53,569 nucleotides of DNA from a virus: positions 1-53,569 of IMG/VR virus record IMGVR_UViG_3300045988_160359; one strand, written 5' to 3'. The notes beneath the pieces were generated by a model. That model saw only the letters and a program-made list of their open reading frames with translations. It did not search any database and was not told the DNA's origin. The position numbers and the translations under genes were made by a program. This document shows positions 20,291-53,569 of the stretch, piece after piece (within the stretch, counting starts at the first letter, position 1; every line of letters begins with the position of its first letter).

Positions 20291-20346
20291 CAATCGAATT
20301 ATGGGCATAATGCCATATATAAAAAACAAGGGCTTTCGCCCTTGTC

Positions 20347-21415: not shown

Positions 21416-21534
21416 GTTGTGTATCTCCTTTGTTGTTTTGTTGTACTCATTATAACACGCCTATTTCGTTTTGTCTATTGGCAAACTATACAAATCGGGA
21501 TTGCGAATTTTGTGCGAAATTTTCGCATTTTTCT

Positions 21535-21640: not shown

Positions 21641-21646
21641 GGACGC

Positions 21647-22369: not shown

Positions 22370-22382
22370 AATTACTTCCTCC

Positions 22383-22619: not shown

Positions 22620-22691
22620 TGTATCGTCCTCCTTTGTTTTACTGTAATCATTGTAGCACACATAGGGCAATTTGTCAAGAGGTTTTTTCAA

Positions 22692-23520
22692 AAATAACCT
22701 ACTTATTTTCGGGACAGAGATTGTGATTATTTTAACAATCGGATTTGCGATTTTTTTTCTTTAACACTTTAATGTAGTGAAGTCTGGGGCGTTGCGACCG
22801 TGTTCGGCATCCAACAGTGAATGTGAAATTTTTAACAATTAAACAGCGACTTCACCACATCCACACATTGTGAATTTTTTAACAATCTTGCTCGGTCAGC
22901 GAATGTATCAACTGTGCCGTGTGTATCCTGCTTGCTACCTGTGCAAGCGCACTCTTTACTCTCTTGCTCTTGGCTCTCACATTGTTAAACTTTTAACAAT
23001 CTTGCTCGCCCCTCTGTGAGGACTGTACGTTGCGGGATGCGCGCCGTTCAGCGCCCGCACTGCTGTGTTGTTTGGCAATTGTGCGAGGGCTTATTCTTGG
23101 GCGATTAGGGCCGTTAACGATGATGAACCTAAAAGAGAAATGGAATACTTACATTAGATTTGTTGGTGCGCGGTTCCCGGTGAGCCGACCGGTGGGAAGC
23201 GCGGTCTATTCTCTTATTGTTGGTCTATTCTCCTCCACCATCTACTACCCATAGCTCACCCTCTATCTCATACCCTACCATACCATACTACTATACTACA
23301 TTGTTAATACATTAACAATGTATCTATCATTGTGTTGTGTTGTGTGTTGTTCTCTTTGTCTGTTGGTCGTTCGCTCGTTGGCTCGCTCTGCCTTGTCCAC
23401 TGTGCCGTGCGTGTCCTTGTCCTCTTTTGGTTGAGTGATTGTTAAATCTTTCACAATCTTACTACATTATTAATCTTTTAACAATCTTACTACATCGTTA
23501 AATTTTTAACAATCTTAGGG
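22692..23520. repeat. Non-coding region with at least 7 TTTTAACAATCTT iterons, a 26-bp palindrome and a CA-rich to GT-rich switch
   Basis: Iterons lie at ~22735, 22843, 22884, 22990 and three tandem copies at 23440-23510. Palindrome tacattgttaa-taca-ttaacaatgta at ~23280. It is flanked on the left by ccataccatactactatactac and on the right by tgtgttgtgttgtgtgttg. Confidence 0.6.
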
Positions 23521-23536
23521 CAACAAAAAAACCTCC

Positions 23537-23632
23537 CTCAGTGAGGGAGGCAGATGAGGCACATCAAGATGCCAGTGCCCGCGACAACAGCGACCGCGGT
23601 GATGAAGCGCACGACTTTGTAGATGATAGACA
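23537..23632 (-). CDS. 31-aa hydrophobic peptide
   Basis: MSIIYKVVRFITAVAVVAGTGILMCLICLPH after AAAGGAGG. The cctccctcactgagggagg hairpin plus T-run follows. Confidence 0.3.
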
Positions 23633-24063
23633 TAGACCATTCCTCCTTTGATGATACTATTATACCAGATTTCAGGATGCGTGTCTATTGACAGAATACA
23701 CAAATTTGCAAGAGATTTTTTGTGGAGTTTGTATTTATTGCGAATGAGGACCGCGACAGCCATTCGCGGTCCTGCGAGTTGAGGGGTTGTATTGGGGATG
23801 GTCTAGTCTTTCCGCGTGCGCCAAGCCCAAGAAGGTCTCGATAGTGTTCAGATTTTTTCTCAGATAAAAACCGACCGGGGGGGGTGGGTTTCGGGAAAAA
23901 ATTTTTTTTGCTTTTTATTTTTTTGTTTGGCTGGTACAAACTCTCACCAAAACTTTTTTCAATTCAAATAACGGTAAAAAGAATTACTTTTTAATTTTAT
24001 TTCTACCAAAAAACCAAATAGGAAAAAATAAAATTAATCCTATCAATGCTAATGCTTCAAGAA

Positions 24064-24207
24064 TCATTTCTTATTCTCCTTCTTAGGGCGACCACGTTTA
24101 GGGTTTTCGCCCCATACAATTTGATGAACTGCTTTAGTAGCATAATAATTAGCTTTTTTCTGCATTTTAGCAGCGAGGGCATTTCCAAAACTTTTATATT
24201 TAGGCAT
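24064..24207 (-). CDS. Small basic protein (47 aa)
   Basis: MPKYKSFGNALAAKMQKKANYYATKAVHQIVWGENPKRGRPKKENKK. Confidence 0.35.
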   Translation of the reverse strand: MPKYKSFGNALAAKMQKKANYYATKAVHQIVWGENPKRGRPKKENKK

Positions 24208-24208
24208 A

Positions 24209-24526
24209 TTACATTACTCCATTAATAGCATCAGTTAGTTTTTGAGGAATTTCAATTCCTAAATCATCTAATACTTCTTTAGCGCGTAAATATTCTATTC
24301 TACTACCATATCGTTTACTCACTCGCACTCCAACATAAACTTCACCATTATATTCAATAGTATAAAATTCCATACGGTCGCCAGGAGTAATACCATATTT
24401 TTGTCTTAAATTTTTAGGAAAAACAAGACGGCCTAAACTATCAACCTAATGGATAGAACCTTCATTATGAACTATTGCTTGGCCTTCTCGCATTACAATA
24501 TCAAAATAATTTTTTCCATCTTCCAT
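24209..24526 (-). CDS. AbrB/MazE/SpoVT-type swapped-hairpin DNA-binding protein, with 1 in-frame TAG
   Basis: VDSLGRLVFPKNLRQKYGITPGDRMEFY matches the AbrB N-domain consensus vDelGRvvIP.elR..lgi..gD.lei. A single TAG lies 27 codons after the ATG. Confidence 0.55.
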
Positions 24527-24530
24527 AAAA

Positions 24531-24824
24531 TCACTTCTCCTCCATTATATGACATTTTTCTCCAGAAGACTTAATAATATGCCAAATATACTCACCATCA
24601 TTAATAACTCCTAAATACTTGTCATTATTATTTACATATGTATCCAATTCCCAACCTGTGCCAACAGCATTAATTTGAAAATATTTTTTGGGTGCTTTTT
24701 CATCATAAGCTGCCCATACGCATGGATTATTATTTACATCTAATCCAGCAGATACAATATCAGTCAGATGGTCCATAATATGAGTTGACCCTGGAGTTTC
24801 AATTAAATATTTATAAATCTTCAT
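24531..24824 (-). CDS. Hypothetical protein (97 aa)
   Basis: Intact ORF. Confidence 0.45.
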   Translation of the reverse strand: MKIYKYLIETPGSTHIMDHLTDIVSAGLDVNNNPCVWAAYDEKAPKKYFQINAVGTGWELDTYVNNNDKYLGVINDGEYIWHIIKSSGEKCHIMEEK

Positions 24825-24825
24825 A

Positions 24826-25152
24826 TTACTCCTCTTTTAACACTTCTACCCAAACACGCACATCTCTATCTTCTGCATTCATTACTCGATTTTTATCATA
24901 TACAAAAATAGGGCAATGTAGTGGATAACAATTTAATCGCATAATTTTAATATCAATATTATCCACATAAATAATCATATTATCTTGAATATACGGCCAA
25001 TAATCTTGACCTTCACCCAATAGGATACAAGTATATCCTGCTTCAATTAATTGTTCAAGATTAATATATTGATTAAATGATACACCCATAAATAGAATAG
25101 TAGTGCCTCGTTTAAAATTTTTTAAAATATATTTAATCTATTTTTCAGTCAT
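24826..25152 (-). CDS. Hypothetical protein with 1 in-frame TAG near the N-terminus
   Basis: MTEK-TAG-IKYILKNFKRGTTILF continues into track ORF 24826..25089. Confidence 0.4.
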
Positions 25153-28206: not shown

Positions 28207-29940
28207 ATGGCTTTATAGGATTTACTTGATTTATCTTAGAAGCGTAAAAAGATTGGAATTTCAGAGGACCGTCTTCGTGCGATTATACCAGAAGCAAGAT
28301 AGTACATAGCCTTTTGGAGAGAATATCCAGATATGTTTATCGACTTCATGGCAGGACCTGATGGCGGCCCTCAACATTTTAAACTCTATTTTTATTAGAG
28401 AATCTTTTTGCGCGCTGCGATGCGTCATAAATATATTTATGCTGTATTCCCTCGTGCTTATTCAAAATCTTTTTTATCAATGATGGTCTTAATGTGTCGT
28501 GCGATTCTATATCCTAGATGTAAATTATTTATTACTTCTGGTGGTAAAGAACAAGCGGCTGGAATTGTAAAAGAAAAAGTTCAAGAAATTTGTACTCTTA
28601 TTCCTGCATTTTAGAAAGAAATAGATTGGCGTCGTGGTTAGACACTTGAAGGTAAGGATTATGTTAAATATGTATTTAAAAATGGTTCATATTTTGATAA
28701 TATTGCTGCAAGAGAATCTTCTCGTGGTAAACGTCGCCATGGTGGTTTAATTGAAGAGTGTGTTGGCGTTGATGGTGATATTTTATCACAAGTTATTATT
28801 CCTACAATGAATATTTCTCGTATGTGTATGGATGGTACTACTCAACCTGATGAAACTCTTAATAAATCTCAAATTTATATTACTACTGCTGGATATAAAA
28901 ATACTTTCCCCTATGATAAATTAATCCAATTATTAGTTTGGGAGATTGTTAAACCTTAGCAATCTATTATTATGGGTGGTACTTATCGTATTCCTGTTTT
29001 AATGAAATTGTTAGATGCGAATTTTATTAAAGACTTAAAAATGGACGGAACGTTCAATGAAAGTTCATTTGACCGAGAGTATGAAAGTAAATGGTCTGGC
29101 ACAGTAGAAGATGCATTTTTTAATGCTGAAATATTTGATAGAAATAGAATATTAAATTAGCCTGAATATGAAGCATCCGGGCGTAATTCAAAATTAGCAT
29201 CTTATGTACTTGCTGTCGACGTTGGCCGTAAAGGATGCGATTCAGTTATTTGTGTATTTAAAGTAACTCCACAATCACAAGGTGGTTCAATTAAAAGTTT
29301 AGTAAATATATATACATTATCTGATGAACATTTTGAAGACCAAACTATTAAATTAAAAAAATTATATTATAAATATAATGCTGATAGAATTGTAATTGAT
29401 GGTAATGGTTTAGGAATTGGTTTAATTGATTATATGGTTAAGACATAGATTGACCCTGAAACTAATGAAATTTTCCCTGATTTTGGCGTTGTTAATGATG
29501 ATGATTTATTTTATAAAAAATATAAAACATCTAATACAGTATTAGATGCTATGTATATTATAAAAGCTAATGCGCCACTTAATACTGAAGCTCATGCGAT
29601 TGCCAAATCACAACTTGCTTCTGGAAAAGTGAAATTTTTAATTGATGAGCGCGTAGCAAAAAATAAACTTCTTGCTAAAAAGAAAGGTCAAACCATGACT
29701 CCAGAATAGAGGGCAGAAGAATTAAAACCATTTACATTAACTTCCATATTAAAAGAAGAAATGATGAATTTGCGTGAAGAAACTGAAGGAGTAAATATTA
29801 TCCTGAAGCAAGCAAATAAAAGTATCCGAAAAGATAAATTTTCTGCTTTTGAATATGGACTATATTATTTAAAATTAGAAGAAGATAAAAAGAAGAAACG
29901 TAAAAAGTTTAATGCTAAAGATTGGTGTTTCTTAAATTAA
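28207..29940 (+). CDS. terL: Terminase large subunit (~577 aa) with about 10 in-frame TAG codons
   Basis: Walker-A-like VFPRAYSKSFL. Nuclease-domain motifs LAVDVGRKGCDSV and IVIDGNGLGIGLIDYM. Track ORFs 28408.. and 28972.. lie in the same frame and are separated only by TAGs. Confidence 0.75.
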
Positions 29941-33600: not shown

Positions 33601-34536
33601 ATGTTTAAGGATTTTTTAAATTCTCGTTTAGGCGTTGGTAAAAATCCACCTAAGTCACAGGCTAAGTATGTTGAGTTTGGTTATGGTCAGGTTGAGCCAA
33701 ATCACCTGTCTGCACAAAGAACCGCTCAAATTTATGCTCAGTTGCCTGCTAACAAGGATATTAATATTCTTGAAAATGGCCAATTTGTCAAGTATGATTA
33801 CGCTGCTAATGCCAATGGTATTGGTGAAGTGAATTTTACTGGCAAGGGCGAGTGGATGCTAGTTTATAATGAGATTAAGTTATATCGCGATCATCCTGAT
33901 GGAACTAAGCAGTGGGATTGCGAATTTGCTATGCTAAAGGACGACTATCAGGCTCGTATTTATTCTCCATACGATTGGGAGCATACCGAGGTTGAATATG
34001 GTGGACGTTTCTGGAATGGTGTTGATGAAACTGGTGCTGATCACAAGGTGCTTGAGCACACTGTTGCTTTAGACCAGGGTCTAAAGACTGTTACCATCGC
34101 TGGCGAAGTTTATGATGTTAAGGACAATAAGTTTACTTATAATGGTGTAGAGTATGAGATTGATCCTAAGACCAATCAGACTAAGACTCCTGTGCCTGTA
34201 AAGTATACTTATGATAAGGTTCTAACTGATGTTGCTGACATTTACGAAGAGCTGACTTGGACTAATGATCCATATAAGAAGCTTGGTGTTTATCATGAGA
34301 AGCGCATGACTCCAGGCACTGCAATGGTTCCTCGTGTCTTTAAAACTAATGTTGGTGATCATTATACTACTAATATGATTAATGAAGATAGTGTTTCTGT
34401 TGGTGACATTTTAGCTCCAGCAGCTGCTGACGGAATTCTTGTAAAAGATGAGAGTCAGGATATGAAGTGGCAGGTTGTTAAGGTATATACTATGCCTGAT
34501 GGACAACGTGGCGCTAAAATTCTACGTATTGCGTAA
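33601..34536 (+). CDS. Head protein (311 aa), TAG-free
   Basis: Intact ORF with a strong RBS AAGGAGG and higher GC than its neighbours. Confidence 0.45.
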   Translation: MFKDFLNSRLGVGKNPPKSQAKYVEFGYGQVEPNHLSAQRTAQIYAQLPANKDINILENGQFVKYDYAANANGIGEVNFTGKGEWMLVYNEIKLYRDHPDGTKQWDCEFAMLKDDYQARIYSPYDWEHTEVEYGGRFWNGVDETGADHKVLEHTVALDQGLKTVTIAGEVYDVKDNKFTYNGVEYEIDPKTNQTKTPVPVKYTYDKVLTDVADIYEELTWTNDPYKKLGVYHEKRMTPGTAMVPRVFKTNVGDHYTTNMINEDSVSVGDILAPAAADGILVKDESQDMKWQVVKVYTMPDGQRGAKILRIA

Positions 34537-34553: not shown

Positions 34554-35660
34554 ATGTTAGATAGAAACAATTTAGTTGCTTTAATGAAGACTGTTGCTAA
34601 GGCTGATCCTTCTTCTCCTGTGGCTTACAGTTATAATGGTCAGAACCTTTCTTATGAGGCTCTGAACGATACTTTACGTAATGAGATGAATGAGCTAGCT
34701 GGTACTAATGCTCTATATCGTGAAAATAAAAATTTAATTTTCTCAATGATTGAGGAGACTTTGGATGAAGTTCTTCCTAAGAAGGTTTCTCAATCTTATG
34801 AGCAGTTTGCTGAAGTTAAGCAGTTTGCTCAGGGTGATAAGCCTATTTTCCGTCGTCCTCTAAATACACGCGCACGTGCTAAGCAGTTTGTGACTCGTGT
34901 TGGACTGGCTGGTATCTATGAAGTCTTCAAGCTGGGACCTGCTGAGAACGAGAGCTTTGAGGTTCGTACTTCTGCTATCGGCGGAGCGGCTCAAATCGGC
35001 TTCGAAGAGTTCTTAGATGGTCGTGTTGATTTTGCTGAAGTTACCAAGATTATTATGGATGGTATGGATGAACTGATTTACAAGGAAGTTGCTTTGGCTT
35101 TGAAATCTTCTATTAATCAGCTACCTCCTGCTAACCGTGTTGCTGCAGCTGGTTTTGATGAAGGTGCTATGGATCGTTTGATTACCATTGCTTCTGCTTA
35201 TGGTACTCCTACTATTTATTGTACTTATGAATTTGCTGTTCGTATGATTCCTAATGAAGCTTGGCGTTATACTGAAGCTATGAAGACTGAGCTGTGGAAT
35301 ACTGGTCGTTTGGCTACCTATAAGGGGACCAAGGTTGTTATTCTAGAGCAGGGCTTCGAAGATGAAAGTAATACCCGTAAGGTTATTGATCCTGGTTATG
35401 CATGGATTATTCCTACTGGTGTTGATGGCAAGCCTGTAAAGATTGCTTTCGAGGGCGGAACTATTGTTGATGAATTCAGCAATTATGATCGTTCTCGTGA
35501 GATTCAGGTTTATAAGAAGGTCGGCGTTGGTTGTATGTTGGCTAACAACATTTGCTCTTATGTTGATACTTCCTTAATGGGTCAAATGTATACTTGGAAT
35601 TATGATGGCATTACTGGTAAGGTTGTTACCTATGATGGCCGTAAGAGTGGTACTATTTGA
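34554..35660 (+). CDS. Putative major capsid protein (368 aa), TAG-free
   Basis: Size, position after the scaffold gene, strong RBS GAAAGGAGAG, GC-richer codon usage and a very strong terminator immediately downstream. Confidence 0.55.
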   Translation: MLDRNNLVALMKTVAKADPSSPVAYSYNGQNLSYEALNDTLRNEMNELAGTNALYRENKNLIFSMIEETLDEVLPKKVSQSYEQFAEVKQFAQGDKPIFRRPLNTRARAKQFVTRVGLAGIYEVFKLGPAENESFEVRTSAIGGAAQIGFEEFLDGRVDFAEVTKIIMDGMDELIYKEVALALKSSINQLPPANRVAAAGFDEGAMDRLITIASAYGTPTIYCTYEFAVRMIPNEAWRYTEAMKTELWNTGRLATYKGTKVVILEQGFEDESNTRKVIDPGYAWIIPTGVDGKPVKIAFEGGTIVDEFSNYDRSREIQVYKKVGVGCMLANNICSYVDTSLMGQMYTWNYDGITGKVVTYDGRKSGTI

Positions 35661-35748: not shown

Positions 35749-36336
35749 ATGATTCATTCTGAAGATATGTTTAATGTAAAAAATAGAAGTACTAGTGTTG
35801 TTGTATATAGAATTCCTGAGAGTAATTTGAGACGTGAGTGGGCACCTGGTGAAGTAAAGCGCATTCCATTTAGTGAATTAGAAAAATTGACTTATCAACC
35901 CGGTGGTCGTGAGTTAATTGCTAATTTCTTACAGATTATGGAAAATGAAGTTACTGATGATTTAAATGTCCATCGTGAGCCTGAATATAATATGTCAGAA
36001 GAGCAAGTGCGTGATTTAATTCTTAGTGGTTCTATTGATGCATTTTTAGACGCTCTTGATTTTGCTCCTATTGGGGTTATTGATTTGATTAAAACCATGT
36101 CTGTTCAACTACCCATTACTGATATGGCTAAGCGTGAAGCTCTAAAAGCTAAAACTGGTTTTGACGTAGATAAAGCTATTGAAAATGACCGTGCTAGTAA
36201 AGAAGATGATAAAAAGGAAACTATCGCAGATAAGCCAGCTGAAAGACGTGTTACAGAATCTGCTCCCGCAGGACGTCGTACATCTGGAAATGCTTACAAA
36301 GTAGTAAAGCAAGCTGAAACTAAATCTGCTGAATAA
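35749..36336 (+). CDS. Structural protein (195 aa), TAG-free
   Basis: Intact ORF with RBS AAGGAG. Confidence 0.45.
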   Translation: MIHSEDMFNVKNRSTSVVVYRIPESNLRREWAPGEVKRIPFSELEKLTYQPGGRELIANFLQIMENEVTDDLNVHREPEYNMSEEQVRDLILSGSIDAFLDALDFAPIGVIDLIKTMSVQLPITDMAKREALKAKTGFDVDKAIENDRASKEDDKKETIADKPAERRVTESAPAGRRTSGNAYKVVKQAETKSAE

Positions 36337-38410: not shown

Positions 38411-39013
38411 ATGAGAATAGACGGATATCATATTCCAAAATCAAGTTTTCTATCTATGGAAAAAGATACTGGGATTATTGTTAATGAAATATTAAAAAAT
38501 AATCGTTTAAAAAAATTATTATATTATACTAGTAGTGATGCTATGGAAAAACCTAATCTTACTGAAGATTAGTCTTTAAGTTTACTAGGAACTAATATTA
38601 AAATAGTGCCTAAATTATATGTTGATGGCTCTGTTTTAAATTATGTATTAATTAATTTTGATAATTTTATTCCCAGTGAAAATCCAGAGTTTAGAGATAA
38701 TACTATTCAATTTGATATTATATGTCATTTTGACCAATGGAATTTAAGAGATTATGCATTGCGCCCATATAAAATTGCTGGAGAGATTGATTCAATGTTT
38801 AATTTAAAAAAATTGACTGGTATTGGTTATTTAGAATTTGTGGGTGCTACTTAGATTGTTTTAAATGATGAATTTGCTGGGCTATGTTTGATGTATCGCA
38901 CTGTTCATGGTGGTGAAGATGAAAAGTATATGCCAACTTATCCTGATAAAAATAGTGGCAAAATTAAAGAGGAACAATTTATTAAAGAATTCAAGGATTA
39001 TATTAGTAAATAA
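38411..39013 (+). CDS. Structural protein (~200 aa, 2 in-frame TAG)
   Basis: RBS AAAGGAG. Track ORF 38606..38854 is in the same frame. Confidence 0.4.
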
Positions 39014-39741
39014 TGGATTACCGCTTAAGTTTAATTTGCGGAACTGATATGTTGATTCCTGAATGTAATTTAGTCGCTCATCAACCAAGGATAAAAGAAA
39101 TTTCATTTATTGGGGAATCTGATTTTTTTATTGGAGCATAGACCCTCTGTTTACATAAAACAATGTTTATAGAGGACAAAACTATTCTAGACAGTATCAA
39201 TAATTTTTAGATATTTATGACGATAATGTTATAGGATGAAACAAAGGATAAAAAAGCTAACATTTTAAATGTTTTAAATTTATTATTTCCATCATATAAA
39301 GTAAATGTGACACCAAACTCATTATTATTTATAAAAGAAGGTGTTCCTCCTATTACTGTAGATGGAAATAATTTTGAAGCATTACAAGAAGTGTTGCGTT
39401 TAATCTTTTGTATGCACAATGGCCCGATGGATTAGTAGGCTTTCAATCCTGCCAACGACAAGGCTCGTGAGATTGCTCAAAAGCTAATGCGAGGGAGACA
39501 GCGAGTTGCCGCTCAAAACGGTAATTCGAATGTAAGTGTTTTTAGTTAGTATATGTCAATCTTGACTATTGGATTAGGCTCAATGTCATTATAGGATTTG
39601 ACAAATCTGACAATGTTCCAATTATATGATTTAATGGAGAGATATACGCTATATACTGCTTGGGACCTGGATGTGCGCTAGCGTTTAGCTGGTGGTAAAC
39701 CTGAAGGGACCCCGGATAATTGGATGAAAAACATTCATTAA
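39013..39741 (+). CDS. Structural protein (~242 aa, about 8 in-frame TAG)
   Basis: TAATG start overlap. The frame is continuous through TAG codons only. Confidence 0.4.
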
Positions 39742-39768: not shown

Positions 39769-40848
39769 ATGAAATTCGGTGTCCGCGAAATTTGTGATGT
39801 TGTATTAAAGGCTAAGTCAGCACAGAAAATTGGTAATAAGATATTCTATGCTGGTGAACCTGTTATTTATTTTGACACCCTAAAAACTTCTAGTTTAGAA
39901 GGTGCTGCTACCACTGTATATGCACAAGGTGGTCGTGGTAACTCTCGTTTGGTAGCATGGGAAGGTGAAAGAACTTTAACCTTCACTATGGAGGATGCTT
40001 TAATTTCTCCTGAAGGATTTATGATTCTTTCCGGTGCTGGCTTAATTGCTGCTAATGCAGATAAGCCAATTTATCAGCATGTGACTGAAACTGTTGATGC
40101 TAGCGATTCTTTACGTTTTAAGTTTGATGCTGCTGGATTTAAGTTCGCTGTTTATACTGAAAATAAGCCTTATCTACCTGCTAATGCTGGTGATAACTTC
40201 GCTTATGTAATGTTTATGAAGAATGGTGAAATTACTACTGAGCCTTATATTCCTGTTCATGAGGGTGATGATACAACTATTGATAATGAGGCTATGCCTG
40301 AGACTGTAACTGATGTAGATGGTAAAACTTATTATCGTGTAGCTGTTATGGATCATAAAATGTATGTTGGTTTGGCTTCTTACGAGGATGAGCAAAATGG
40401 TGGTCATAAGTATACTCCAGAAAGTGGAGATAATACTGCTTATGATGTAGTTACTCTACCAAATCGTCTAAAGTTCGATTCTGTGTTAGTTGATTATTAC
40501 ACTGAGCGTAAGTCTGGTGCTACTCAAATGGAAATTACTGCTGATAAGTTTGGTGGTAACTATTATCTTGAGGCTTCTACTCTATTCCGTGATACTAATG
40601 GTGTAGACATGCCTGCTGAGTTCATTATTCCTAACTGCAAGATTCAGTCTAACTTCACCTTCACTATGGCTTCTTCTGGTGACCCAAGTACATTTACTTT
40701 CACCTTAGACGCATTCCCTGATTATACTCGTTTCGATCATAGTAAGAAGGTTCTGGCTGCAATTCAAGTAATTGAGTATCTGGATAATGAGGATTTACAT
40801 CGTCATAGTACAGTTCACCAGAAATCTCACGATAGTTATAATTGGTAA
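39769..40848 (+). CDS. Putative major tail protein (359 aa), TAG-free
   Basis: RBS AAGGAGG, a strong terminator downstream, and a position upstream of the chaperones and tape measure. Confidence 0.5.
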   Translation: MKFGVREICDVVLKAKSAQKIGNKIFYAGEPVIYFDTLKTSSLEGAATTVYAQGGRGNSRLVAWEGERTLTFTMEDALISPEGFMILSGAGLIAANADKPIYQHVTETVDASDSLRFKFDAAGFKFAVYTENKPYLPANAGDNFAYVMFMKNGEITTEPYIPVHEGDDTTIDNEAMPETVTDVDGKTYYRVAVMDHKMYVGLASYEDEQNGGHKYTPESGDNTAYDVVTLPNRLKFDSVLVDYYTERKSGATQMEITADKFGGNYYLEASTLFRDTNGVDMPAEFIIPNCKIQSNFTFTMASSGDPSTFTFTLDAFPDYTRFDHSKKVLAAIQVIEYLDNEDLHRHSTVHQKSHDSYNW

Positions 40849-40867
40849 TTTAATTAAAAATTTTATG

Positions 40868-40900
40868 GGGAGAGGATTTATTCCTCTTCCCATTTTTTTA
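40868..40900 (+). terminator. Rho-independent terminator
   Basis: ggggagaggatttattcctcttcccc followed by attttttta. Confidence 0.6.
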
Positions 40901-41987: not shown

Positions 41988-42053
41988 TAAAAAAATTGAC
42001 AATAAACTAAATTTTTAGTATAATATAAATAAGTGTAAAAGGAGGATTTTGAA

Positions 42054-42578
42054 ATGGCAAGAGTAACATTTTCAAAGTTAAATTTAAGTAAAAATATAGA
42101 AGTATCAACCTTTGAATGGGGAGATTAGATTATTGAAGTCAAAGATTATCTTCCTATTGGAGATAAGTTAAATCTTATTTCAGAAATTATTAATGATTCT
42201 ATTGATAAAAATGGTTATTATAATCCTGCTCGTGTATATCTTCATACTATTTTAAAAATGATTATGGCATATACAAATGTAAGTTTTACTGACAAGCAAA
42301 AAGAAGACCCAAAGAAATTATATGATTTAGTAGTAGGTTCTGGTTTTTCTGCTAAAGTATTTGGAGAAATTAATCCAGGAGAATATGCACAAATTAAAAG
42401 TTGGGTTGCGGAAACTATTCATTCAATTTATGAGTATAAAAATTCTGCGGCTGGTATTTTAGATATTATTTCTACGGATTATAAAGATACAACATTTGAT
42501 ATGGAACAATTAACTAATGACATTCAGAATCCTGAAACATTAGGATTGCTAAAAGATGTTTTGACCAAGTTGGGATAA
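42054..42578 (+). CDS. Tail assembly region protein (~174 aa, 1 in-frame TAG)
   Basis: RBS AAAGGAGG. Track ORF 42258..42578 is in the same frame. Confidence 0.45.
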
Positions 42579-42626
42579 TTAAACTATTTAATTTTTTAAA
42601 ATTAAATAGGAATAATCAAGTGTATG

Positions 42627-42663
42627 GGTGTGAGAAGATTATTTCTCACACCCATTTTTTTTG
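42627..42663 (+). terminator. Rho-independent terminator
   Basis: gggtgtgagaagattatttctcacaccc followed by atttttttt. Confidence 0.6.
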
Positions 42664-42693
42664 TTTATATTATGAGAGAAAGGAGTCCCGTTT

Positions 42694-45600
42694 ATGGCAA
42701 AACAACTAAATGTCGCATTAGATTTTACTGCAAATACTACTCAAGCGAAATAGCAGATTTAGGAATTGCAGTAGTTATTAACTAAAGTAGCATATAGTAC
42801 TGACTTAGGTATTAATCCCAGTCAAATGAAAGAAGCTTCTGCTGCGGCTAAAGAATTAGCTATTCATTTAAATGAAGCGTATAATTAGAAAACTGGTAAT
42901 TATGATTTAAGTAAATTAAATGCTAGTTTAGCTAAATCAAAAACTAATGTGACTGAATTATCTACCAGCTTACTCCAAGCGGGAACAACTGGACAACAAG
43001 CATTTATAAAATTAGCTCAATCAATAGCGGCGGCTGATTAGCCAATGATTACATTAAATGCTCGTTTATAGGATTTTTTGACTACTGTTAAGAATACAGT
43101 TAAATGGCAAATTTCTTCAAGTATGATTCATGGGGTAATGGGAGCTTTGCAAGGAGCTTATCGTTATGCTTAGAATTTAAACAGTTCATTAAATGATATT
43201 CGAATTGTTACTGGTCATAATATTGACTATATGGATAAATTTGCTGATAAAGCAAATAAAGCAGCAAAGGCATTAAGCACTTCTACATTAAATTATACTG
43301 ACGCTTCTTTGATTTACTATCAACAGGGTTTGTCAGACAAAGAAGTAGAAGATAGAACTGCTGTTACTATTAAAATGGCTAATGCTGCTGGTGAAAGCGC
43401 AGATAAAATATCAGATCAATTAACTGCTGTTTGGAATAACTTCTATGATGGGTCACAATCATTAGAATATTATGCCGATGTTATGACTGCATTAGGTGCA
43501 GCGACAGCTTCCAGCACAGATGAAATTGCGGCTGGATTAGAAAAATTTGCGGCCGTGTCTAACACAGTAGGCTTAAGTTATGAGTATGCTACTTCTGCTT
43601 TAGCAACTGTAACAGCAACAACTCGTCAATCTGCTGATGTAGTTGGTACTGCATTTAAAACATTATTTGCTCGTATTCAAGATTTAGAATTAGGGAAAAC
43701 TCTTGAAGATGGTACTACATTAGGAAAATATTCTCAAGCTCTTGATACTGTTGGCATTTCTATTAAAACAACAGATGGCGGATTGCGAGAAATGGATGAT
43801 ATCCTTAGTGATTTAGGTGAAAAATGGAATTCATTTGATGTTGAAGGTAATCCATTAATTTCTAAAGATGCTAAAGTAGCATTAGCTCAAACTGTTGCTG
43901 GTGTTCGTCAATATACGCAATTAATGGCATTAATGGATAATTGGGATTTTATGAAAGAAAATCTCGAAACTGCTCGTAATGCTACTGGTACATTAACTGA
44001 ACAATAGAAAATTTATGAAGAATCTTGGTAGGCTGCTAATAAACGTTTAAAAGCTTCTTTTGAATCTTTATATACTGATTTAATTGATGATAAATTTTTT
44101 ATTAAATTTACAGATTTTTTATCTGATATGGTTGATGGTGTTGATTCTTTTATTGATAAAATTGGTGGAATTAAACCTTTATTATTAGGATTTTTATCAT
44201 TAATTGGTTAGACATTAAGTTCTAAAATTTAGCCGGCTTTAGATAATGCAATAAATAATATTCAAATTTTAGTAGGTGGAGCAGATAAAGTTTATGCTAA
44301 AATATCTAAAGAAACTTCTGATAATATTAAACTATAGTTAGAAGCAAGAACTAATTTTACTCCAGCTCAAGAATAGGAATTAAAAAATTCTTAGGAATTA
44401 TTAGGAGTAAAAAATAAATTAGCAACAGTGTCTGAAAATTTATCTGTTAGTGAAAAAAGATATTATGAAAATGAAATTCAATTTATTGAAAAACAATAGT
44501 AGGAAACAGTAAAATTAATTAAATTACGAGAACAATTAAATAAAGATACTAATCCTATTGATTTAAATGCTCCTAATCAAATTTATGATTATGGTACTAG
44601 TTATTTACAGAAGTTAAAAGCTAATAAAGATAAAGTTTAGTAGTTATATCGTAATAATCCATCTGAAAGTAATTAGGCAGATTTAGTCGCTGCTAGAAAT
44701 GATTTAGCTTTTTTTTAGAATGATAAATTAGATATTCAGGAACAGGCGGCATCTCAGTTAGCACAAACAGTTGAAAAATTAACAAATGCTTATAAAACTT
44801 TTATTGAAGTTGGACATGAAACAAATGAAACTTTACTATCAGGAAATGATTTATACTCTTTAACAATTGAAGGACTTAAAAAATTAGGAACTTAGTATAC
44901 TAAATTAAATGGTGAAATTGATTTTGAAACGGTTCGAACTTCTATTGATATGCTTATTGGTCCAGTAGATGAAGTCACAAAATCTTCAAAAGATTTTCAA
45001 AATGCTTTAGAAGCTATTGAAAGTGCATTAGATGGAGGAAAGCCGAAAGAAGTAAGTTAGGCTTTTAAGCAGTTAGCAGAAGTTCTAAAAAATACTACTA
45101 TTGAAGGAAAAAATGCGGCTAATGCTTTAGAACAAATGGGTCGTTCAACAAGCAAATCAATGAAATAGGCTAAAGGTGATATTTAGGCGCATGGTAAAGC
45201 ATTAAAATAGTGGGGATAGGCTACTAAAGAAGCAAAAGAGGCACAAGAAGGACTTAATCAAGCAGTTATTAATTTTAAACCAGTTCATAAAATACCTTTC
45301 ACTTAGAGCGTAATATCATTGGCTTCTGCTTGTGGTTCTGCTGCGATGACATTGCAATCATTTAATTCTATGATGCAAACATTATCTGATCCTGATATTT
45401 CTGGATGGGAAAAATTTACATCTGTTTTATTTAGTATTTCTATGATTGTCCCTGGGGTGTCTAGTGTTTTACGAGGATTAAGTACTACTAATGCCTTTTT
45501 ACAACAATAGTCTTAGAAACAATTTCTTACACTTTCTTTAGAAAATGTAGCGATAGAGGCTAATACAATAATATTAACTTAGAATCAAAAAAAGAAAATA

Positions 45601-48600
45601 GATAATATATTAGCTAGTAAAAAATTAAATGATGCTTTTAAAAAGAATGCTATACAAGCAGTTTTAGCTGCAGGAGGAGTGGTTACTGAAACTACAGCGT
45701 TGCAAGCTGAAGCTATTGTAGCAGGAAAGGCGACGGTAACAACTAATGCTTTTTCTACAGCTTTAAAAGGTTTATGGTTAAATATTGCTCCAGTTTTAGC
45801 CACTATTTGGCCTTTAATTGTAGCTTTAGGAGCTTTAGTAGCGGCTTGGACGATATATAACAATGCTACTGGGGCAGCAGCTGAAAACGCGGAATAGAAT
45901 AATAAAAATTTAGAAGAAACTAAAACTGCTTTAGATGATGTAAATAGTAGATTAAATACATTAAATAGTACTTTATCTGGGCTAAATGATAAACGTAAAA
46001 ATATTGACAATCTCACTTATGGAACTATAGAATGGCGAGATGCTGTTAATGAGTTAAATGATGAAGTTGATGACTTAATTGAAAAATATGGTTTAATAAA
46101 AGGATAGGACTGGGATATTGATGCTCAAGGGCGTAAGTATATTACAGACACTGGCGCGGAGACTATGCGTACTTCAATGGATGAAGAACGTTCTAATTTA
46201 TTATCAGCAAAAGCTGCTCAATAGAAATTTAAAGATAAATATGAATACGATTAGAGAAAAAGAGAAATTATTTCTGATTATACTAAACGCGGATAGACCC
46301 ATTATGATAATGATGTAGAATAGATTACTTCTAAAGATCTAGACACTATTATTAATGCTAAATTACGTAATCCAAACTTAGAAATTGATTCTGATGCATT
46401 AAAAGATTTAGGCTTAGATTAGAGTGTTATTGATTTAATTGATAATAATACTGAATTACAAGATGCTATTAAAGAATTGACTATATAGGCACAACGAATT
46501 GCTGACACAGAAACTAATGATATGTATAATAAAATGGTTTCTGAAGGGATTTTAGAAGATTTAAAAGAGGCAGGAGTCAGTGATGAATATGCCTCTGATA
46601 TTGCTTATAAAATGGCTGAAGATGCAGCCCGTAATTCTAATGCTATAGATTATACTGACTAGTCTGCTACCGCTTTTAATGTTTTAAATAATTCAAATGA
46701 AAATATTCAAGAGTTTTTAAAAGAAAGAGGATATACTTATAAAGACAATAATTTTTGGGGTAATCTATCTAAATTATAGAATGATAAAACTATTGAAGTA
46801 TATACAGATGAAGATTAGAAAGAGACTAAAAATATTTCTGTTTCAGAATTACGAGCTTGGTTGGAAAATAAATTAGCAGCTGAAGATACTGTGGCTAATA
46901 TTGATGATTATGTAGGAATAGAAGCCGATAGTAAAACAACTTGGGAAAACGCTTTTAAAGCAAAAGAAACTTGGAATAAAAATCAATCAACTGTAAATGA
47001 ATTTGAACAAATAAATCAACAGGGGACTCCAAACGAAGATTCTTTTGATAATACAGAAGATTATCAAGCGGCTTATAATAATTATCAAGATTAGTTAAAA
47101 GAAAAAGCTCAAGCTATGTCAGATATGTTAAAATAGAATTCTGAAGAGTATGCTTCTATGTTTAATATAACTAAAGAAGGTTTCGAAGAATGGATTAGTG
47201 ATAGTGACAATATTATTGAACATTATGATTTAATTAAGAAAGCAGTTGAAGGAGACGCTGAAGCTGTAAATGAATTACGAAAATTAACTGGTCTTAATAT
47301 TGGTACTATTAAAGATATTTAGGATGCTTGGAATGATAACAGCAAAGAACTAGATAAATATATTGAAAAATTAGAAAAAAATCAAGATTTAACAGAAGCT
47401 GAATATGAATCTTTTGGAGATTTTTTAAATGCTAATTCTGATAGTTTTGCTTCTTTAGCAGCAGTGAGTGAAGATACATTTGATAAAATGTTATCTCATA
47501 ATAAAGATTTTATTAAAAAATCTGGTCCATTGATTCCTAAAATGATGAAAGGCGATACTAAAGCTGTTCAACAATTTAGAGTAGAAGCATAGCGTCAAAT
47601 TGTTTTAGATGTTAATAACACTAAAGCCCGTTCAGCAATGGCTCAATTAGAGGACTCTGCTGATGCTGCGGCTGGAACAGTTGAATCAGATGTTCAAAAT
47701 GCTTTTGATTATATTTCTAATTATATAGAAAACAATCCGATTGAAGTCGGAGCAGAAGTCAATGATGCTGGATTTATTGATGCTTGTAATAAAATAATTG
47801 CCGCTAGTGGATGGACATCTGAACAAGCACAAAAAGAATTTGCTAAAATGGGATTTAATTTAGAATTAAATCCAGTCACTCCTTAGGTTACTAAAAAACA
47901 TTATGAAGTATTAGAAGCTTCAGATGTCCCTGATGCTGTTGATTCAAACCATCATAAAAAAGGTGACCCTGAGGTAGTGTCTTATGAAGCTACCGATACT
48001 ATTGAATACCCCGCAGCAGTTAAGGCTGTAACTGGTGGCGGCTTAGAAATGGGCGGTGAAGTCACTGGAGGCACAAAACCTTCTGGAGCCACTGGAGGAA
48101 ATGGTAGCGGTGGTAGTAGTGGAGGTGGCGGTGGAAGCTCATATACTCCTCCTCCTCCAAAAGAATATAAAGATGAAATTGAGCGTTATCATGTAATTAA
48201 ACAAAAAATTGAAGATTTAGAAGAAGTAATGGAACATTTAGCAAAAGCTAAAGAGCGGGCATTTGGCACTTCTAAATTAGAATTAATGGATCAAGAAATT
48301 GAGAAATATGATGAAATGATTGATTTATAGAATCAATATCTTGATGAAATTAATAAATATTGGGATGAAGATAGAGCTTTAATTGCATCTTATGGCGCTG
48401 AATTTGATGAAACTGGTGCTATTACTAATTATGATGAAATTATGAAGCGCCAGATTGATAAATATAATTCATCTATTGGTAGAAATGAAGAGGCTGATGA
48501 TGCGGCTGAAGATGCTTATGATGATTTTATTAAAGCTTTAGAATAGTATGAAGAAACTAATAATTTACGCCAAGACGAATTGGAAAAATTATATGATTTA

Positions 48601-50991
48601 CAAACTGAATTAGCTGATGTAATTTTTGAAAAGACTTAGTATAAAATTGAAATTAAGATTGCTGTTAAAGATGATGAATTAGAATACCTTGATTATTTAT
48701 TAAGTAAAATTGAAGATGATGCTTATTCGGCGGCTGAGGCTATAGCTTTAATTGGTGATAAAACTTAGAATACTCTTGATAAAATTACTACTTATCAAAA
48801 AGGATTAATAGAGTTATTAAATAATCATGGTATTGATTCAATAGAAGAATTAGAGGGAATGTCTGAAGCTGATTTAAAAGCTAAAGGATTTACTGCTAAA
48901 GAAATTGAGCAATTAAGAGACTGGCGTTCAGAATTATTATCTAGTAATCAAGAATTACTTGAAATGCGTAATACAATTCAAGAAAAAGTATTAGATAGTT
49001 TCAATCAATTTAGTGAAGATATCGAGCATCAAATTGAATTATTTGATCATTATCAAAATATTTTAGAAGGTGTTAAAGATATTACATCATTATTAGGAAT
49101 GTAGTTGGGAGAACAGTCTAAAATAGTAATTCGCAATTTAAATCGTTCATTAATGAATAATAGTATTAATAACTTAGCTGGAACTAAAAAAGAATTAGAA
49201 GCATTGAAATAGATGCGCGCAGACGCTTAGGCTGAGCGTGATAAAGTGGCAGCTAACGGAGATGAACAAGCTATTAAGAAATGGGATAAAACCTTACAAG
49301 AAATTGATGATAAAATTAATGGCGCAGAAGAAAGCTTTTTAGATAGTTGGCAAGAAGCATTATAGAGAGCAAAAGACATCTTTAATGAAGAAATGGATAA
49401 TATTATTCAAGAATTTGAAAAAGGAATTGCTCCTATTCAAGGCACCATTGATGCATTACAAGAAGCCATTGACCAAGCTAATGAAATTGATGCACAATAT
49501 TTAAGTGATACTGATAAAACTTATGAATTAAATAAATTAAGACGTTAGATTGAAGGTTCTATAGAAGATACTGATATTATCGCCCATAAACAAGCATTGA
49601 ATAAATTGCAAGATGAGTTAAATAAAAAATTAAAAGATGGTTCTTAGATTAGTGAATATGATTTGAAAATTTTACAATCTAAATATGAATTAGAATTAGC
49701 ACGTCAAAAATTAGAAGATACTCAAAATAATAGTGAAGTTGTACGCTTGACTCGTGATAATAATGGTAATTGGGGATATGTATATAGTGCCGATGAAGAT
49801 AAAATTGCTGAAGCCGAATAGGCTTATGAAGATAAATTAAATGCTTACCAAAAAGCAAATGAAGAATATTTAAAAACTCTTGAAAGCAATATTCTCCAAG
49901 TGTAGGCGGACTATAAAGAAAAACTTAAAGAAATAGAGTTAGGATTGGCTGACGGAGAAATAACAAAAGAAGAGGCTGAAGCTAGAATTGCTAATTTGAA
50001 CGATTGGTATTTAAATAAGATGCAATATCTTGAAGGCGAATATAAAAAGTTATTTGAAAATAGTCAAGACGCAACAGAAAAATTCACTTCATATTATTAG
50101 ACTAATACTGATAATATTAAAAATACATTTGAGAAAACTACTTTAGCTATTAAAGGTGGATATGAATCATTAGACGCAATGTTCAAACGATTCTGGGAAA
50201 GTCATGACAATGTATTAGATAATTCAATGAAACTATTAGATGATCTTAGTAAAAAATAGGATGAAATAAATCAAACTGCTGGTATTGAAGGTAGTTTTGC
50301 TAATGAGGCCTCTGGTTGGTCTATTAAGATTACTGGTGATTCTGATAAGGCATTAGCTGATATGGATGGGATAGTTAAGAACGCTACCGATTCCTTCAAA
50401 GACGTTATTGAAGCAGCAGGTAAATGGGAAAAAATTTATAGTGAAAAAATTAATAGTGCCATTGATCGGAATGAAGCTCTCGTGGTTAGTCTTAATAAAA
50501 TGGTTGCATTATTATCTGGAATAGATAGCATCGATTATAGTAAGTATGGAAAGAAAATAGATTCTCGCGCTACCGCGACAGATAATAATATAATTAGCAC
50601 TCAACATAATTCTAAAAGCTTTAACAGTACTGATTATATTGCAGAACAATCTTTCCCCTTAACTTATGATATATTTGATAGATTAGATATGAGTAAATAG
50701 ATAGATGAATGGATGTAGAGTAATGAATTAACAATTGATACTGCATTAATTGATAGCTTAGATGTATCAAGTATTTTACAAAGTATAGGATTAAATGTTT
50801 AGACTATTGTAAATTATTTATCTAATTTAACTCCTTCTTCTCTTGGTATTGATAGAATTGCACAAGAATTGATGCAGCAAGTCTCTATTAATGCTGATTT
50901 CCCGAATGTGACTGATAGTAATGAAATTATGGAAGCATTTGAAATGATGGAGAATGAAGCAAGTCAATACGCTAGTCGAAAGACTATTTAA
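42694..50991 (+). CDS. Tail tape measure protein, ~2,765 codons, containing many tens of in-frame TAG codons
   Basis: Nine track ORFs all lie in one frame: 43231, 45319, 45679, 46861, 47638, 47977, 48859, 50362 and more. It has a TP901-type TMP core (AGLEKFAAVSNTVGLSYEYATSALA), hydrophobic TM stretches and a G/S-rich linker. Only TAG interrupts the frame. Confidence 0.8.
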
Positions 50992-50994
50992 TTT

Positions 50995-51035
50995 AAATGG
51001 CGAGGTTTAATTACCTCGCCATTTTTTTATTGGTC
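50995..51035 (+). terminator. Rho-independent terminator after the tape measure gene
   Basis: ggcgaggtttaattacctcgcc followed by atttttttat. Confidence 0.6.
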
Positions 51036-51103: not shown

Positions 51104-53569
51104 ATGTCTAATGAATTAAATGAAAAAATATTCCGATCAGTAGACACAATTGTATCTGCTCGATTATAGAATTTACCATTTGACTAGACAATAATCGGTG
51201 TGGTAGAAAGTGTACCTGAAAAATCAGAAGCGCAAAAATACATAGTAAATTATAAAGGTGCAAAATTAACAGTATTTGTAAATGATACTGATAAAAAATA
51301 TGCAATAAATGAAGAAGTATATGTATTAATTCCTGGTGGAGATTTTTCAGCTAAAAAACTTATTACAGGTAGAGTTATAAGTGATTATTAGGCTGATGAA
51401 AAAAGAAATGAAAATAATTATCTGCCATCATTTAGCCATTGGGTTTCGCCTGAGCAAGAATATAGTTTAATTGTTGAAAATAGTAATTCAGAATCAACAA
51501 AATTAATTTATGAAGTTGCATTAAATGATTCTCCTATTATTGGTTATACAACCTTATAGTTAGCTTATAATATTGCCGCGGATTTATACAATAATGAAAA
51601 AATTGTTGATTAGGGAATATATGGAGTAAGAGTTATTTTAACAGCAATTGATTAGAATACTGTTAATACTAATGATAATAATTTAAAACAAGACTTAATA
51701 TATAATATGACTTGTGATAATATGTTATTAATGAATAAATATCGTTCAGGTGGATATACGGCACAAAATTTCAATATTACGATTACTGATAAAATTATTA
51801 CTAATATAAAAATTATTGCATACCACAATGGAAAATTTTATGACAGTGATAATAATAAAATTACCCAAAAAGATGATTTATATGTTAAATTAAAAAATTT
51901 CACATTAACTACTGGGTATTTAAAAAAGGATTTAGACAATGACAGTAATAGTGATATTGCAATTTATTTTTATTCTCTTAATGGTATATAGTATAAAAGT
52001 AATACTAATGAATTAGATGTTACAACAGCATTTCGTCCAGTAAATAAAGTTACTGGTACTATTATTACCTATCCTATTACTAATATTTAGTTATATAGAT
52101 ATAATGACAGCAATACTATCAATACGTCAGGAGTTGGAATAGGCTGGGATTTGATTAATAATGTAATTTAGAAAAATACTACATTAAGTTTTAAATTGCA
52201 ATCTGGCGATTAGATTACAAAAGCGATTTATTGTGTTAAAATTAGTTTTAATGTTAATAATATACCAAATGTTTATGCCGTTTCAAATAAATTAACATTT
52301 ACTAATTAGACTTCTAATGAAAATATTTCATTATTAGCGGGAATTACATTAACTCCTAATAACAATAGTAATGTTTTCTACTCTTATGGACAAGATAATT
52401 AGTTATTAGCTCGATCTGATAGCGAAAAACTATAGAGAATTGCTGTATCATTTTCGTCAAAAGATACAACTGGAAATACTACATTAGTCCCAGGAGTCAA
52501 TTTAACTTATTATTTACCAGTAAAGAATACTATGATTTTACCTGTTGATTCTAGACGAGAAATTAATAAAAAAAATCAATAGGAGTATTATACATTTAAT
52601 AAAAAATTAACAAGCGATGATTTACAATCAAATATTTTTTACATCCCATTTAAAATTGCTAATTTATATAATCCATTATTTAAAAATAATACAATTATTT
52701 GTGATGTAGAAATTAATGATTAGATTTATACTCAAAACTTAGATTTATTGTTCGGTGTTAGTGGTTCTTCAGGTGCTAATTATGTTTTATAGTTAGAATT
52801 ATAGGATAGTGCTTCTAATTAGAAGGTAAAATCTATTTTTTATAAAGCAACTAATTAGCCCGTGTATAAAATTTAGTATTATTTATATGATTATGCTTGG
52901 AATTCAATTCCTAATAATAATTTAAAAAATATTTCATTTACATGGTATAATTCAGCATTAAACAATAATTCTAAAATAAAATTAGATAATAAAACGGGAG
53001 TTATTACTTTATTACAAGATTTAGTCGCAGAAGATGGAATTGCTTCTAAATTAATAGTTTAGATGACTGGCACTTATCAAGGAATTGAATTAAAAGGATA
53101 TATCACAATACCAGTAAGTTTTAATCCTTTATGTGCTTGTATTGATGGCTGTTCTATTATTACATATGATATAACAGGCAAAAAACCAATTTATGAAAAA
53201 ACTCCTTATAGATTATATCAATATTCTGATTCGTTAGATTTATAGATTATAGATGATATAGAGTGGAATTTAATAGATGAAAGTGGATTATTAAAATTTA
53301 ATTCTATTGATCCTAGTGGGCCTAACTCTAAAATTAAAATTATTACTCCACCAACAATTTATTCCCCACAAAATAAATCTTCATATATAACGGCGAGTCT
53401 AAATAGTTCAATTGTTTGGATATAGCCAATTTTAATGATAAATAATACTTATCCAACAGCCATGTGGAATGATATGCGTGGAAATGAAATTAATTTTAAT
53501 AACAATGAACTTCAATTATTTTCTGCAACTGTTGGACAATTAGATGCTAAACAAGCAAATGGAGTATTA
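51104..53569 (+). CDS. Distal tail / tail fibre protein, partial (runs off the window end), with many in-frame TAG
   Basis: Track ORFs 51200, 51707 and 53063 share the frame of the ATG at 51104. The sequence is Asn/Thr/Ser-rich, which is typical of fibre proteins. Confidence 0.5.

Follow-up and report, generated by a model that had tools for sequence, protein, structure and literature searches.

A giant TAG-recoded gene that very probably encodes the tail tape measure of a large phage of siphovirus type

Results

A frame of 2,765 codons is open when TAG is read as sense

We analyzed a 53,569-nucleotide (nt) stretch of viral DNA (IMG/VR record IMGVR_UViG_3300045988_160359, positions 1 to 53,569; hereafter, the window) and concentrated on its largest frame, gene 42694-50991 on the plus strand, which very probably encodes the tail length tape measure protein (TMP) of a large siphovirus-type phage reading TAG as glutamine. 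With TAG taken as a sense codon, the 8,298 nt of this gene consist of 2,765 sense codons and a terminal TAA, and the frame contains 63 in-frame TAG codons, no TGA and no internal TAA. Because each of the five other frames of the same stretch carries 139-499 stop codons, this openness is far beyond what chance would give. Under the standard code (code 11), the region dissolves into open reading frames (ORFs) of at most 258 amino acids (aa), and translation of the TMP would end at codon 20.

The effect of the code extended to neighboring genes. Reading through TAG restored full length in the TMP gene, the terminase large subunit gene, the gene at the portal position and the connector genes, and the summed length of ORFs of at least 100 aa in the window (six frames, overlaps counted) came to 25.7 kb under code 11 vs 55.6 kb under code 15. 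TAA terminates 16 of the 17 complete late genes and TGA the remaining one; TAG terminates none. An 18th late gene runs off the window end.

Using the first 600 aa of the TMP to scan IMG/VR, we obtained 57 loci on contigs mostly of 90-200 kb. The orthologous frame was open over 2,743-3,229 codons (TAG as sense) in 55 of these loci, comprising seven close relatives (TMPs of 2,757-2,784 aa, with 58-97% overall TMP identity) and 48 more distant ones (2,743-3,229 aa). Together with the window, these 56 sequences fall into two tight length classes, of 2,743-2,874 and 3,097-3,229 aa. At a further locus, L042 (IMGVR_UViG_3300021399_000103, 10001-18658), the TMP frame runs on through 2,885 codons only when TGA counts as sense, with 22 in-frame TGA codons, no TAG and 7 TGG. 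As L042 uses TGA while the other members hold 0-115 TAGs, a single TMP family includes standard-code, TAG-recoded and TGA-recoded members. In L049:10001-11206, the TMP orthologue read with code 15 is interrupted by a TAA once about 401-404 codons have passed, perhaps through truncation, frameshift or faulty assembly.

An earlier sequence-only reading of this DNA had described an open frame of ~8.3 kb and ~2,765 codons with TAG as sense, and both the frame and the sense use of its 63 TAGs are borne out by these data. The same reading had named indels breaking the frame as what would overturn it; the frame is instead open in 55 related contigs, including the seven independently assembled close relatives.

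Homology and gene order point to a tape measure protein

With TAG translated as Q, the Pfam domain PF10145 (PhageMin_Tail) matched aa 188-382 of the protein (E = 4.3e-22; 79.4 bits vs a cut-off of 33.2), and many PHROGs annotated as TMP, among them 4211, 34405, 28, 1272 and 1533 with E values from 4e-44 to 1e-11, matched over aa 1-580. The neighboring genes form a head-tail module that includes a terminase large subunit gene (28207-29940), a major capsid homologue (34554-35660), whose tblastn matches in Bacillus phages Kirov and Thrax1/3 are annotated as major capsid proteins, and a major tail homologue (39769-40848), which matched annotated major tail and tail tube proteins. Searches of PDB and Pfam returned no match for the capsid candidate. 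The TMP gene lies downstream of the major tail homologue, and the PHROG order upstream of it (phrog_31155, 6123, 4051, 2729, 30570, then TMP) is that of the cultured Enterococcus phage VRE9_3, in whose syntenic module genes annotated as "tail protein" come after the TMP. In the window, the next gene downstream, 51104-53569 (plus strand, running off the window end), had no PHROG match and is presumably a distal tail or host-recognition protein. The domain, the TMP PHROGs and the synteny with VRE9_3 together sustain the earlier assignment of the gene as a tape measure, and the host of the phage is probably a member of the Firmicutes.

Some features of other TMP loci were absent. At the end of gene 42054-42578, upstream of the TMP, we found no overlapping shifted ORF with a slippery heptamer of the kind that marks a G/GT-type frameshift chaperone, and a terminator-like hairpin fills the gap. 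An upstream frameshift chaperone pair is common, not universal, in TMP loci, and its lack does not exclude a TMP identity. No lytic transglycosylase domain was detected in the TMP with Pfam, and a PDB sequence search with the TMP gave a sole, spurious match, of its Gly/Ser-rich linker to the linker of a single-chain variable fragment (scFv).

TAG exchanges with glutamine codons among close relatives

To the extent that codon exchange can reveal meaning, TAG behaves as a glutamine codon, as in code 15. We counted exchanges among the window and loci L002 and L004-L008 at aligned positions at which at least five of six flanking residues are identical, and found TAG opposite CAA 30 times, opposite CAG 10 times and opposite all other codons 23 times (n = 63; GAA 5, AAA 2). 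Conversely, the commonest exchange partner of CAA was TAG (30), ahead of CAG (12). As CAA and TAG differ at two bases, this argues for the behavior of synonymous codons rather than for mutational proximity. Across the family, the sum of TAG, CAA and CAG per TMP stayed steady at 161-223 while TAG itself ran from 0 to 115. In other code-15, crAss-like phages, the reading of TAG as glutamine has been shown by proteomics (PMC9523058).

A candidate suppressor was sought by pattern scans of IMG/VR in which a CUA anticodon arm was joined to a T-arm. An exact 39-mer of the suppressor tRNA of L066 returned only two contigs, while a degenerate anticodon-arm pattern returned five, and by ARAGORN and Rfam five of the seven closest relatives have a tRNA(CUA) on their contigs: _141926 (L002), _120995 (L003), _147738 (L004, 97% TMP identity), _163304 (L005) and _140174 (L007). 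The gene (52.5 bits with the Rfam tRNA model) sits in a conserved tRNA cluster, with neighbors that include Tyr and Thr tRNAs by ARAGORN, which found no tRNA in the 57 TMP loci themselves. In the relatives, the cluster runs Pro-Arg-Val...Sup-Tyr-Thr-Ser. About 1 kb upstream of the tRNA(CUA), inspection by eye of L066:660-860 (contig IMGVR_UViG_3300045988_141926) suggests a tRNA-Gln(UUG)-like gene whose two halves, similar to the tRNA-Gln of phage phAss-1, are parted around the anticodon loop by roughly 130 nt of inserted sequence; neither ARAGORN nor Rfam called it.

Two accounts would deprive the frame or its TAGs of the meaning given here. A pseudogene, a mis-assembly or a row of short genes split by genuine TAG stops would explain why code 11 yields only small ORFs in the region, but it has practically no probability left, since 2,765 codons pass without a TAA or TGA where every other frame is dense with stops, since frame and length are conserved in 55 independent contigs and since TMP homology extends across many TAGs; we consider it refuted by the conservation and the stop counts. 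It is likewise very improbable that TAG is bypassed or decoded as pyrrolysine, tyrosine, lysine or glutamate. ARAGORN does label the tRNA(CUA) "tRNA-Pyl", a name derived from the anticodon alone, and some TAG columns align with GAA or AAA; CAA and CAG, however, account for 40 of the 63 conserved-context exchanges, the summed glutamine codons hold steady whatever the TAG count, and the proteomic data from other code-15 phages place glutamine at TAG.

The TAG load of the TMP follows its length

By count, the TMP gene has the most in-frame TAGs in the window, with 63 vs at most 23 in any other gene. Per 1000 codons, however, its 22.8 TAGs are exceeded in gene 39013-39741 (33.1) and in gene 51104-53569 (28.0), and its TAG share of glutamine codons (63/168, or 0.38) is close to that of the other late genes (76/240, or 0.32; Fisher p ~0.3). 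The highest share among the larger genes belongs to 51104-53569, where 23 of 40 glutamine codons are TAG (binomial P = 0.002). Among 39 heavily recoded relatives, the TMP share of 0.425 lies within the range of connector and tail genes (0.38-0.52). Over the family as a whole, individual orthologous TMPs contain 0, 1, 7-16, 36 or 52-115 TAGs.

Within the gene, the TAGs avoid the conserved parts. A run of 278 codons (aa 160-438) over the PF10145 core is free of TAG while holding 11 CAA/CAG codons, the TAG share peaks in the variable center (37 of 81 glutamine codons, 0.46), and in distant relatives TAG columns are less conserved than CAA/CAG columns. We found no sign of an early gate, as the position of the first TAG fitted the geometric (chance) expectation when 42 relatives were taken together with the window, each of these 43 TMPs having 30 TAGs or more. 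Nor did the 3' context prove special: A follows TAG at +4 in 43% of cases vs 30% for CAA, a difference that is not significant (p = 0.08). On the most parsimonious view, TAGs build up where constraint is weak, and their number scales with length. The share of glutamine codons is not enriched, and nothing marks the TMP as having been picked out for suppressor sensitivity.

The sequence-only reading had held that this gene contains far more in-frame TAGs than any other and that its expression is therefore the most sensitive to suppressor level, and had proposed counting TAGs per gene under table 15. That count upholds the first statement in absolute numbers, while density and glutamine-codon share do not. 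The second holds arithmetically only: a full-length yield of p^63 amounts to 53% at p = 0.99, 4% at 0.95 and 0.13% at 0.9, but the similar shares in other late genes and the orthologues with anywhere from 0 to 115 TAGs speak against a special sensitivity.

Major capsid and tail genes are nearly free of TAG

Four genes of the window, 33601-34536, the major capsid gene, 35749-36336 and the major tail gene, have no TAG among their 37 glutamine codons, an outcome with a chance of ~2e-7 at the pooled TAG share of 0.34. In 33601-34536, the major capsid gene and the major tail gene, CAG is at least as frequent as CAA, unlike in the other late genes, where TAG makes up about one-third of glutamine codons and CAA most of the rest. 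The pattern recurs in the 39 recoded relatives, where the four gene families have a TAG share of 1-3% vs 38-52% in TMP and connector genes; for the major capsid and major tail genes, the figures are 0 of 19 glutamine codons in the window and 1.7-2.5% across these relatives. Such TAG-poor genes fit selection against TAG in very highly expressed genes, and also a slower turnover in conserved genes.

One proposal would be that the TAG load of the TMP was selected as a timer or checkpoint that couples tail assembly tightly to the level of the suppressor tRNA. In arithmetic terms, the p^63 yield leaves no other product of the window as dependent on the suppressor, TAGs remain numerous in the TMPs of all recoded relatives, and recoding has been proposed as a regulator of late genes in published models (10.1101/2021.08.26.457843). 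We nevertheless regard such an adaptive gate as unlikely, given that the glutamine-codon share is unremarkable in the window as well as family-wide, that two other genes are denser in TAG, that the first TAG lies where chance would put it, that functional-looking orthologues make do with 0, 1, 7-16 or 36 TAGs, and that the base at +4 after TAG does not differ significantly from that after CAA. A second proposal, which we hold to be doubtful as well, starts from a slightly inefficient decoding of TAG, whereby TAG would be tolerated or favored in low-copy virion proteins (TMP, connector and tail tip) and purged from those required in hundreds of copies, so that the TAG load would help to set expression ratios. 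It draws on the 0 of 37 count, on the contrast between the four families and the TMP/connector genes in the recoded relatives and on the CAG-leaning codon usage, with the capsid and tail identities resting on tblastn matches to annotated proteins. Fewer accepted substitutions combined with ordinary translational selection in conserved, highly expressed genes would, however, produce the same pattern, the related loci are not independent samples, and a crAss-like tail tube family is reported to prefer TAG (10.1101/2021.08.26.457843), making the rule not general.

A Gly/Ser-rich linker lies at the edge of a replaceable center

The TMP divides into a conserved N-terminal module, a hypervariable center and a conserved C-terminal module, the last two separated by a G/S/P-rich linker (Table 1).

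Table 1. Coordinates of the TMP gene, its flanking signals and the modules of its product
Feature	Position (nt)	Strand	Remarks
Terminator-like hairpin, 14-bp stem then T-run	42624-42655	+	Between gene 42054-42578 and the TMP start; consensus scan
Ribosome-binding site AAAGGAG	42679-42685	+	8 nt upstream of the ATG; read from sequence
TMP gene, 2,765 codons + TAA, 63 in-frame TAG as Gln	42694-50991	+	
Conserved N-terminal module, aa 1 to about 500	42694-44193	+	Distant relatives still 35-85% identical in each 100-aa block
PF10145 PhageMin_Tail domain, aa 188-382	43255-43839	+	Pfam; inside the TAG-free run aa 160-438
Hypervariable central module, aa about 501-1780	44194-48033	+	Identity profiles; highest TAG share
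Hydrophobic segment, aa 908-929	45415-45480	+	Kyte-Doolittle, 19-residue window, mean 1.8; crude predictor
Hydrophobic segment, aa 1026-1056	45769-45861	+	Kyte-Doolittle, mean 2.28
G/S/P-rich low-complexity linker, aa 1781-1822	48034-48159	+	No Gln codons, no TAG
Conserved C-terminal module, aa 1823-2765	48160-50988	+	Opens with KEYKDEIERYH and a long helix
Terminator-like hairpin, 12-bp stem then T-run	50995-51024	+	Directly 3' of the TMP stop codon

The linker (GGGLEMGGEVTGGTKPSGATGGNGSGGSSGGGGGSSYTPPPP; aa 1781-1822, nt 48034-48159) is the segment that had earlier been placed at about 48,050-48,160 in mid-protein; it is there, although at 65% along the protein rather than in the exact middle. 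No tandem DNA repeat underlies it. Comparison with L006-L008 revealed what it separates, as the center of these TMPs is only 11-44% identical to that of the window while the flanks are 84-100% identical in L006 and L008 (65-99% in L007). The YTPPP junction, at residue 1817 in the window, nevertheless falls at 1830-1836 in L006-L008, a shift of only 13-19 aa, and the C-terminal module measures 949-950 aa in all eight close sequences. A center that is replaced while its length is kept amounts to ruler-like length conservation combined with mosaic exchange, and the linker sits at the boundary of that exchange on the 3' side.

In about half of the family, Gly/Ser-rich windows stand at 0.62-0.69 of the TMP length, and in most cases a (D/E)RY(H/Y/K) motif comes within the next 20 aa or so. 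Many relatives have another Gly/Ser-rich site at about 0.92-0.93 of the length (for example, L009:2897-2913 aa and L012:2545-2560 aa); at the threshold used, the TMP of the window has none. In a single-sequence AlphaFold (AF2) model of the TAG-free aa 1732-1878 (147 aa), there was no regular structure up to aa 1821 and a long helix from aa 1822, with a predicted local distance difference test (pLDDT) score of 80-96; as the model was made without an alignment, its first 90 residues are of low confidence, not proven disordered. The model is consistent with the linker being a flexible joint between the central and C-terminal modules. It might conceivably also be a processing site, and nothing here indicates one.

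Signals around the gene suggest stepwise attenuation

A perfect (12/12) sigma-70-type promoter, TTGACA-17-TATAAT, lies at 41996-42024, upstream of gene 42054-42578. The hairpin between that gene and the TMP is identical in sequence in seven close relatives and hence carries no covariation information; from its form, it would act as a terminator. The hairpin directly after the TMP stop codon is kept in close relatives, with differences in the loop only. A further strong terminator-like hairpin follows the major tail gene at 40865-40893. Judged by their sequence, the promoter and the hairpins after the major tail gene, before the TMP and after it suggest a stepwise transcriptional attenuation along the tail module, and the low-copy TMP gene may be attenuated by read-through at its flanking hairpins.

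A high-GC block belongs to the same lineage

Far from the TMP, an 18-kb block at 5700-24000 has a GC content of 0.42-0.50 (GC at third codon positions, GC3, mostly 0.4-0.8), whereas the remaining window is mostly at 0.28-0.32; in composition, the early genes of the block stand far apart from the TAG-recoded late genes. About 30 or more small genes crowd its minus strand. Many of them lie behind a near-consensus TTGACA-N17-TATAAT promoter and a hairpin that together form many repeat families, and among the PHROG matches are phrog_5889, phrog_20187 and a 5'-3' deoxyribonucleotidase. The IMG/VR contigs that carry the close TMP relatives have this block as well, with the same high GC and with gene 13017-13673 at 96-100% aa identity; it is therefore a genuine part of the lineage rather than a chimera. 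Its HD-like gene 6495-7103 (minus strand; phrog_5889) has one in-frame TAG, at codon 36 and inside the matched domain, so that TAG read-through is not confined to the low-GC late module.

Discussion

The data can be brought together in a model in which the full 2,765-aa TMP would be made only once a phage-encoded suppressor tRNA(CUA), presumed to be encoded elsewhere in this phage's genome, reads all 63 TAGs, which would set the timing of its expression. The many TAGs would follow from the code change, from AT-biased drift at weakly constrained positions and from gene length, and would not constitute a TMP-specific device. In the protein, the N-terminal module carrying PF10145 would be joined to a fast-evolving, recombining central spacer that keeps its length and not its sequence, as expected of a ruler, and the G/S/P linker would act both as a flexible joint and as a recombination boundary toward a conserved C-terminal module that may be largely helical, the helix modeled there starting at aa 1822.

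Several points weigh against this picture. Neither ARAGORN nor Rfam found a tRNA in the 53.6-kb window, nor did Rfam find any RNA family; the window is part of a genome, the suppressor has been seen only in relatives, and while the lineage has it, for this genome its presence is inferred. The glutamine identity of TAG rests on codon-exchange patterns. The TAG-poor capsid and tail genes mean that selection acts on TAG placement somewhere, and a purely neutral picture is incomplete. Finally, the family comparisons are uncorrected for shared ancestry, and related loci are not independent samples.

The paradigm of tail length determination, from the work of Katsura and Hendrix, is phage lambda gpH. 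The TMP described here resembles it in that its gene is the largest one in the tail module and comes after the major tail gene, and in a length that is conserved while the sequence drifts. It differs in being about three times longer, in its apparently non-helical G/S linker and in having no recognizable G/GT frameshift pair directly upstream. Among large Firmicutes siphoviruses (Perkons, Bacillus SPbeta-like, Tsamsa-like and the Lactococcus 949 group), the N-terminal PF10145 region and the major capsid and major tail proteins are homologous to those of the window, whereas these phages use the standard code, are 23-26% identical, and in some cases have TMPs annotated with lytic transglycosylase domains. 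The Enterococcus phages VRE9_3, EF1 and EF5 (PP680569, MF001358; about 138-142 kb) share the order of upstream PHROG families. The annotated TMP of VRE9_3 (2,673 aa) is colinear with that of the window, whose aa 1-504, 1828-2441 and 2697-2763 align to its aa 1-507, 1659-2242 and 2612-2673, and in both a (D/E)RY(Y/H) motif, DRYY in VRE9_3, directly follows a low-complexity stretch. In VRE9_3, however, that stretch is K/D/E-rich rather than G/S-rich, the code is standard with no in-frame stops, and identity is 22-30%.

The closest counterparts in kind are the phAss-1 group described by Babkin et al. in 2023 (PMC10607447; OQ749652, "Caudoviricetes code 15 clade"), human-gut, siphovirus-type genomes of roughly 135 kb. 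Relatives of phAss-1 have TMPs of 3,149-3,209 aa with TAG read as glutamine and three tRNA-Sup-CTA genes, and the proposed Phassvirus (phAss-1, BK046881 and BK025033) is held together by a nucleotide identity of about 80-86% and shared synteny (PMC10607447). The likeness to the window covers giant TAG-interrupted TMPs and, in relatives of the window, tRNA-Sup-CTA genes, together with 32% aa identity in the TMP N-terminus and 50% in the major capsid protein, but TMP similarity is limited to the N-terminal approximately 500 aa and the structural module occupies another genome position. Megablast of 30000-53569 and 5500-25000 against GenBank phage records gave no match, which, with these modest identities, places the phage of the window as related to the phAss-1 group at the protein level, not as a Phassvirus. 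It is the same kind of phage as the phAss-1-type recoded gut phages, in which TAG-recoded giant TMPs have already been described.

Recoding of late structural genes has been described as general, and close relatives as differing in code (Borges et al., bioRxiv 10.1101/2021.08.26.457843). The "Agate" clade of that study (about 154 kb, with TGA-recoded, TAG-recoded and standard-code members), which we liken to the present family by description only, likewise has recoded late structural genes, phage-encoded suppressor tRNAs and codes that differ among close relatives; our family contigs of about 100-200 kb fit this description, as do their mixed codes with one TGA-recoded member. By contrast, Borges et al. 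highlighted lysis genes, not the TMP, as preferentially recoded (10.1101/2021.08.26.457843).

Tail length scales with TMP length at ~0.15 nm per residue. At this value, the tail would measure about 415 nm. The tail of Psychrobacillus phage Perkons is 380.6 +/- 16 nm long (PMC13245101), which for its 2,439-aa TMP gives 0.156 nm per aa, and this ratio would put the present tail at about 430 nm. The earlier claim of a very long tail is thus supported as an inference from TMP length and Perkons scaling, at 415-430 nm, and the TMP gives a direct prediction of an unusually long tail, of about 0.4 micrometer. For relatives whose TMPs measure 3,100-3,230 aa, the predicted tails are about 50-70 nm longer.

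For annotation, the consequence is immediate: under the standard code, the TMP gene is invisible, broken into fragments of at most 258 aa, and it needs calling with table 15. For phage biology in general, little is added here to what the phAss-1 and Borges et al. studies had described. The family itself, however, is a compact natural series for the spread of stop-codon recoding, with one orthologous gene that holds 0, 1, 7-16, 36 or 52-115 TAGs, or 22 TGAs, and the same series can be used to test for selection against recoded codons in highly expressed genes. A more speculative view, to which we give a low probability, is that TAG is a graded attenuator rather than a fully neutral sense codon, purged from the major capsid and tail genes and making up ~40-50% of glutamine codons in low-copy proteins. 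If this were true, the 63-TAG TMP would be translated at only a small part of the rate at which it is initiated, a part that depends on the suppressor, and the code change would set virion stoichiometry as well as timing.

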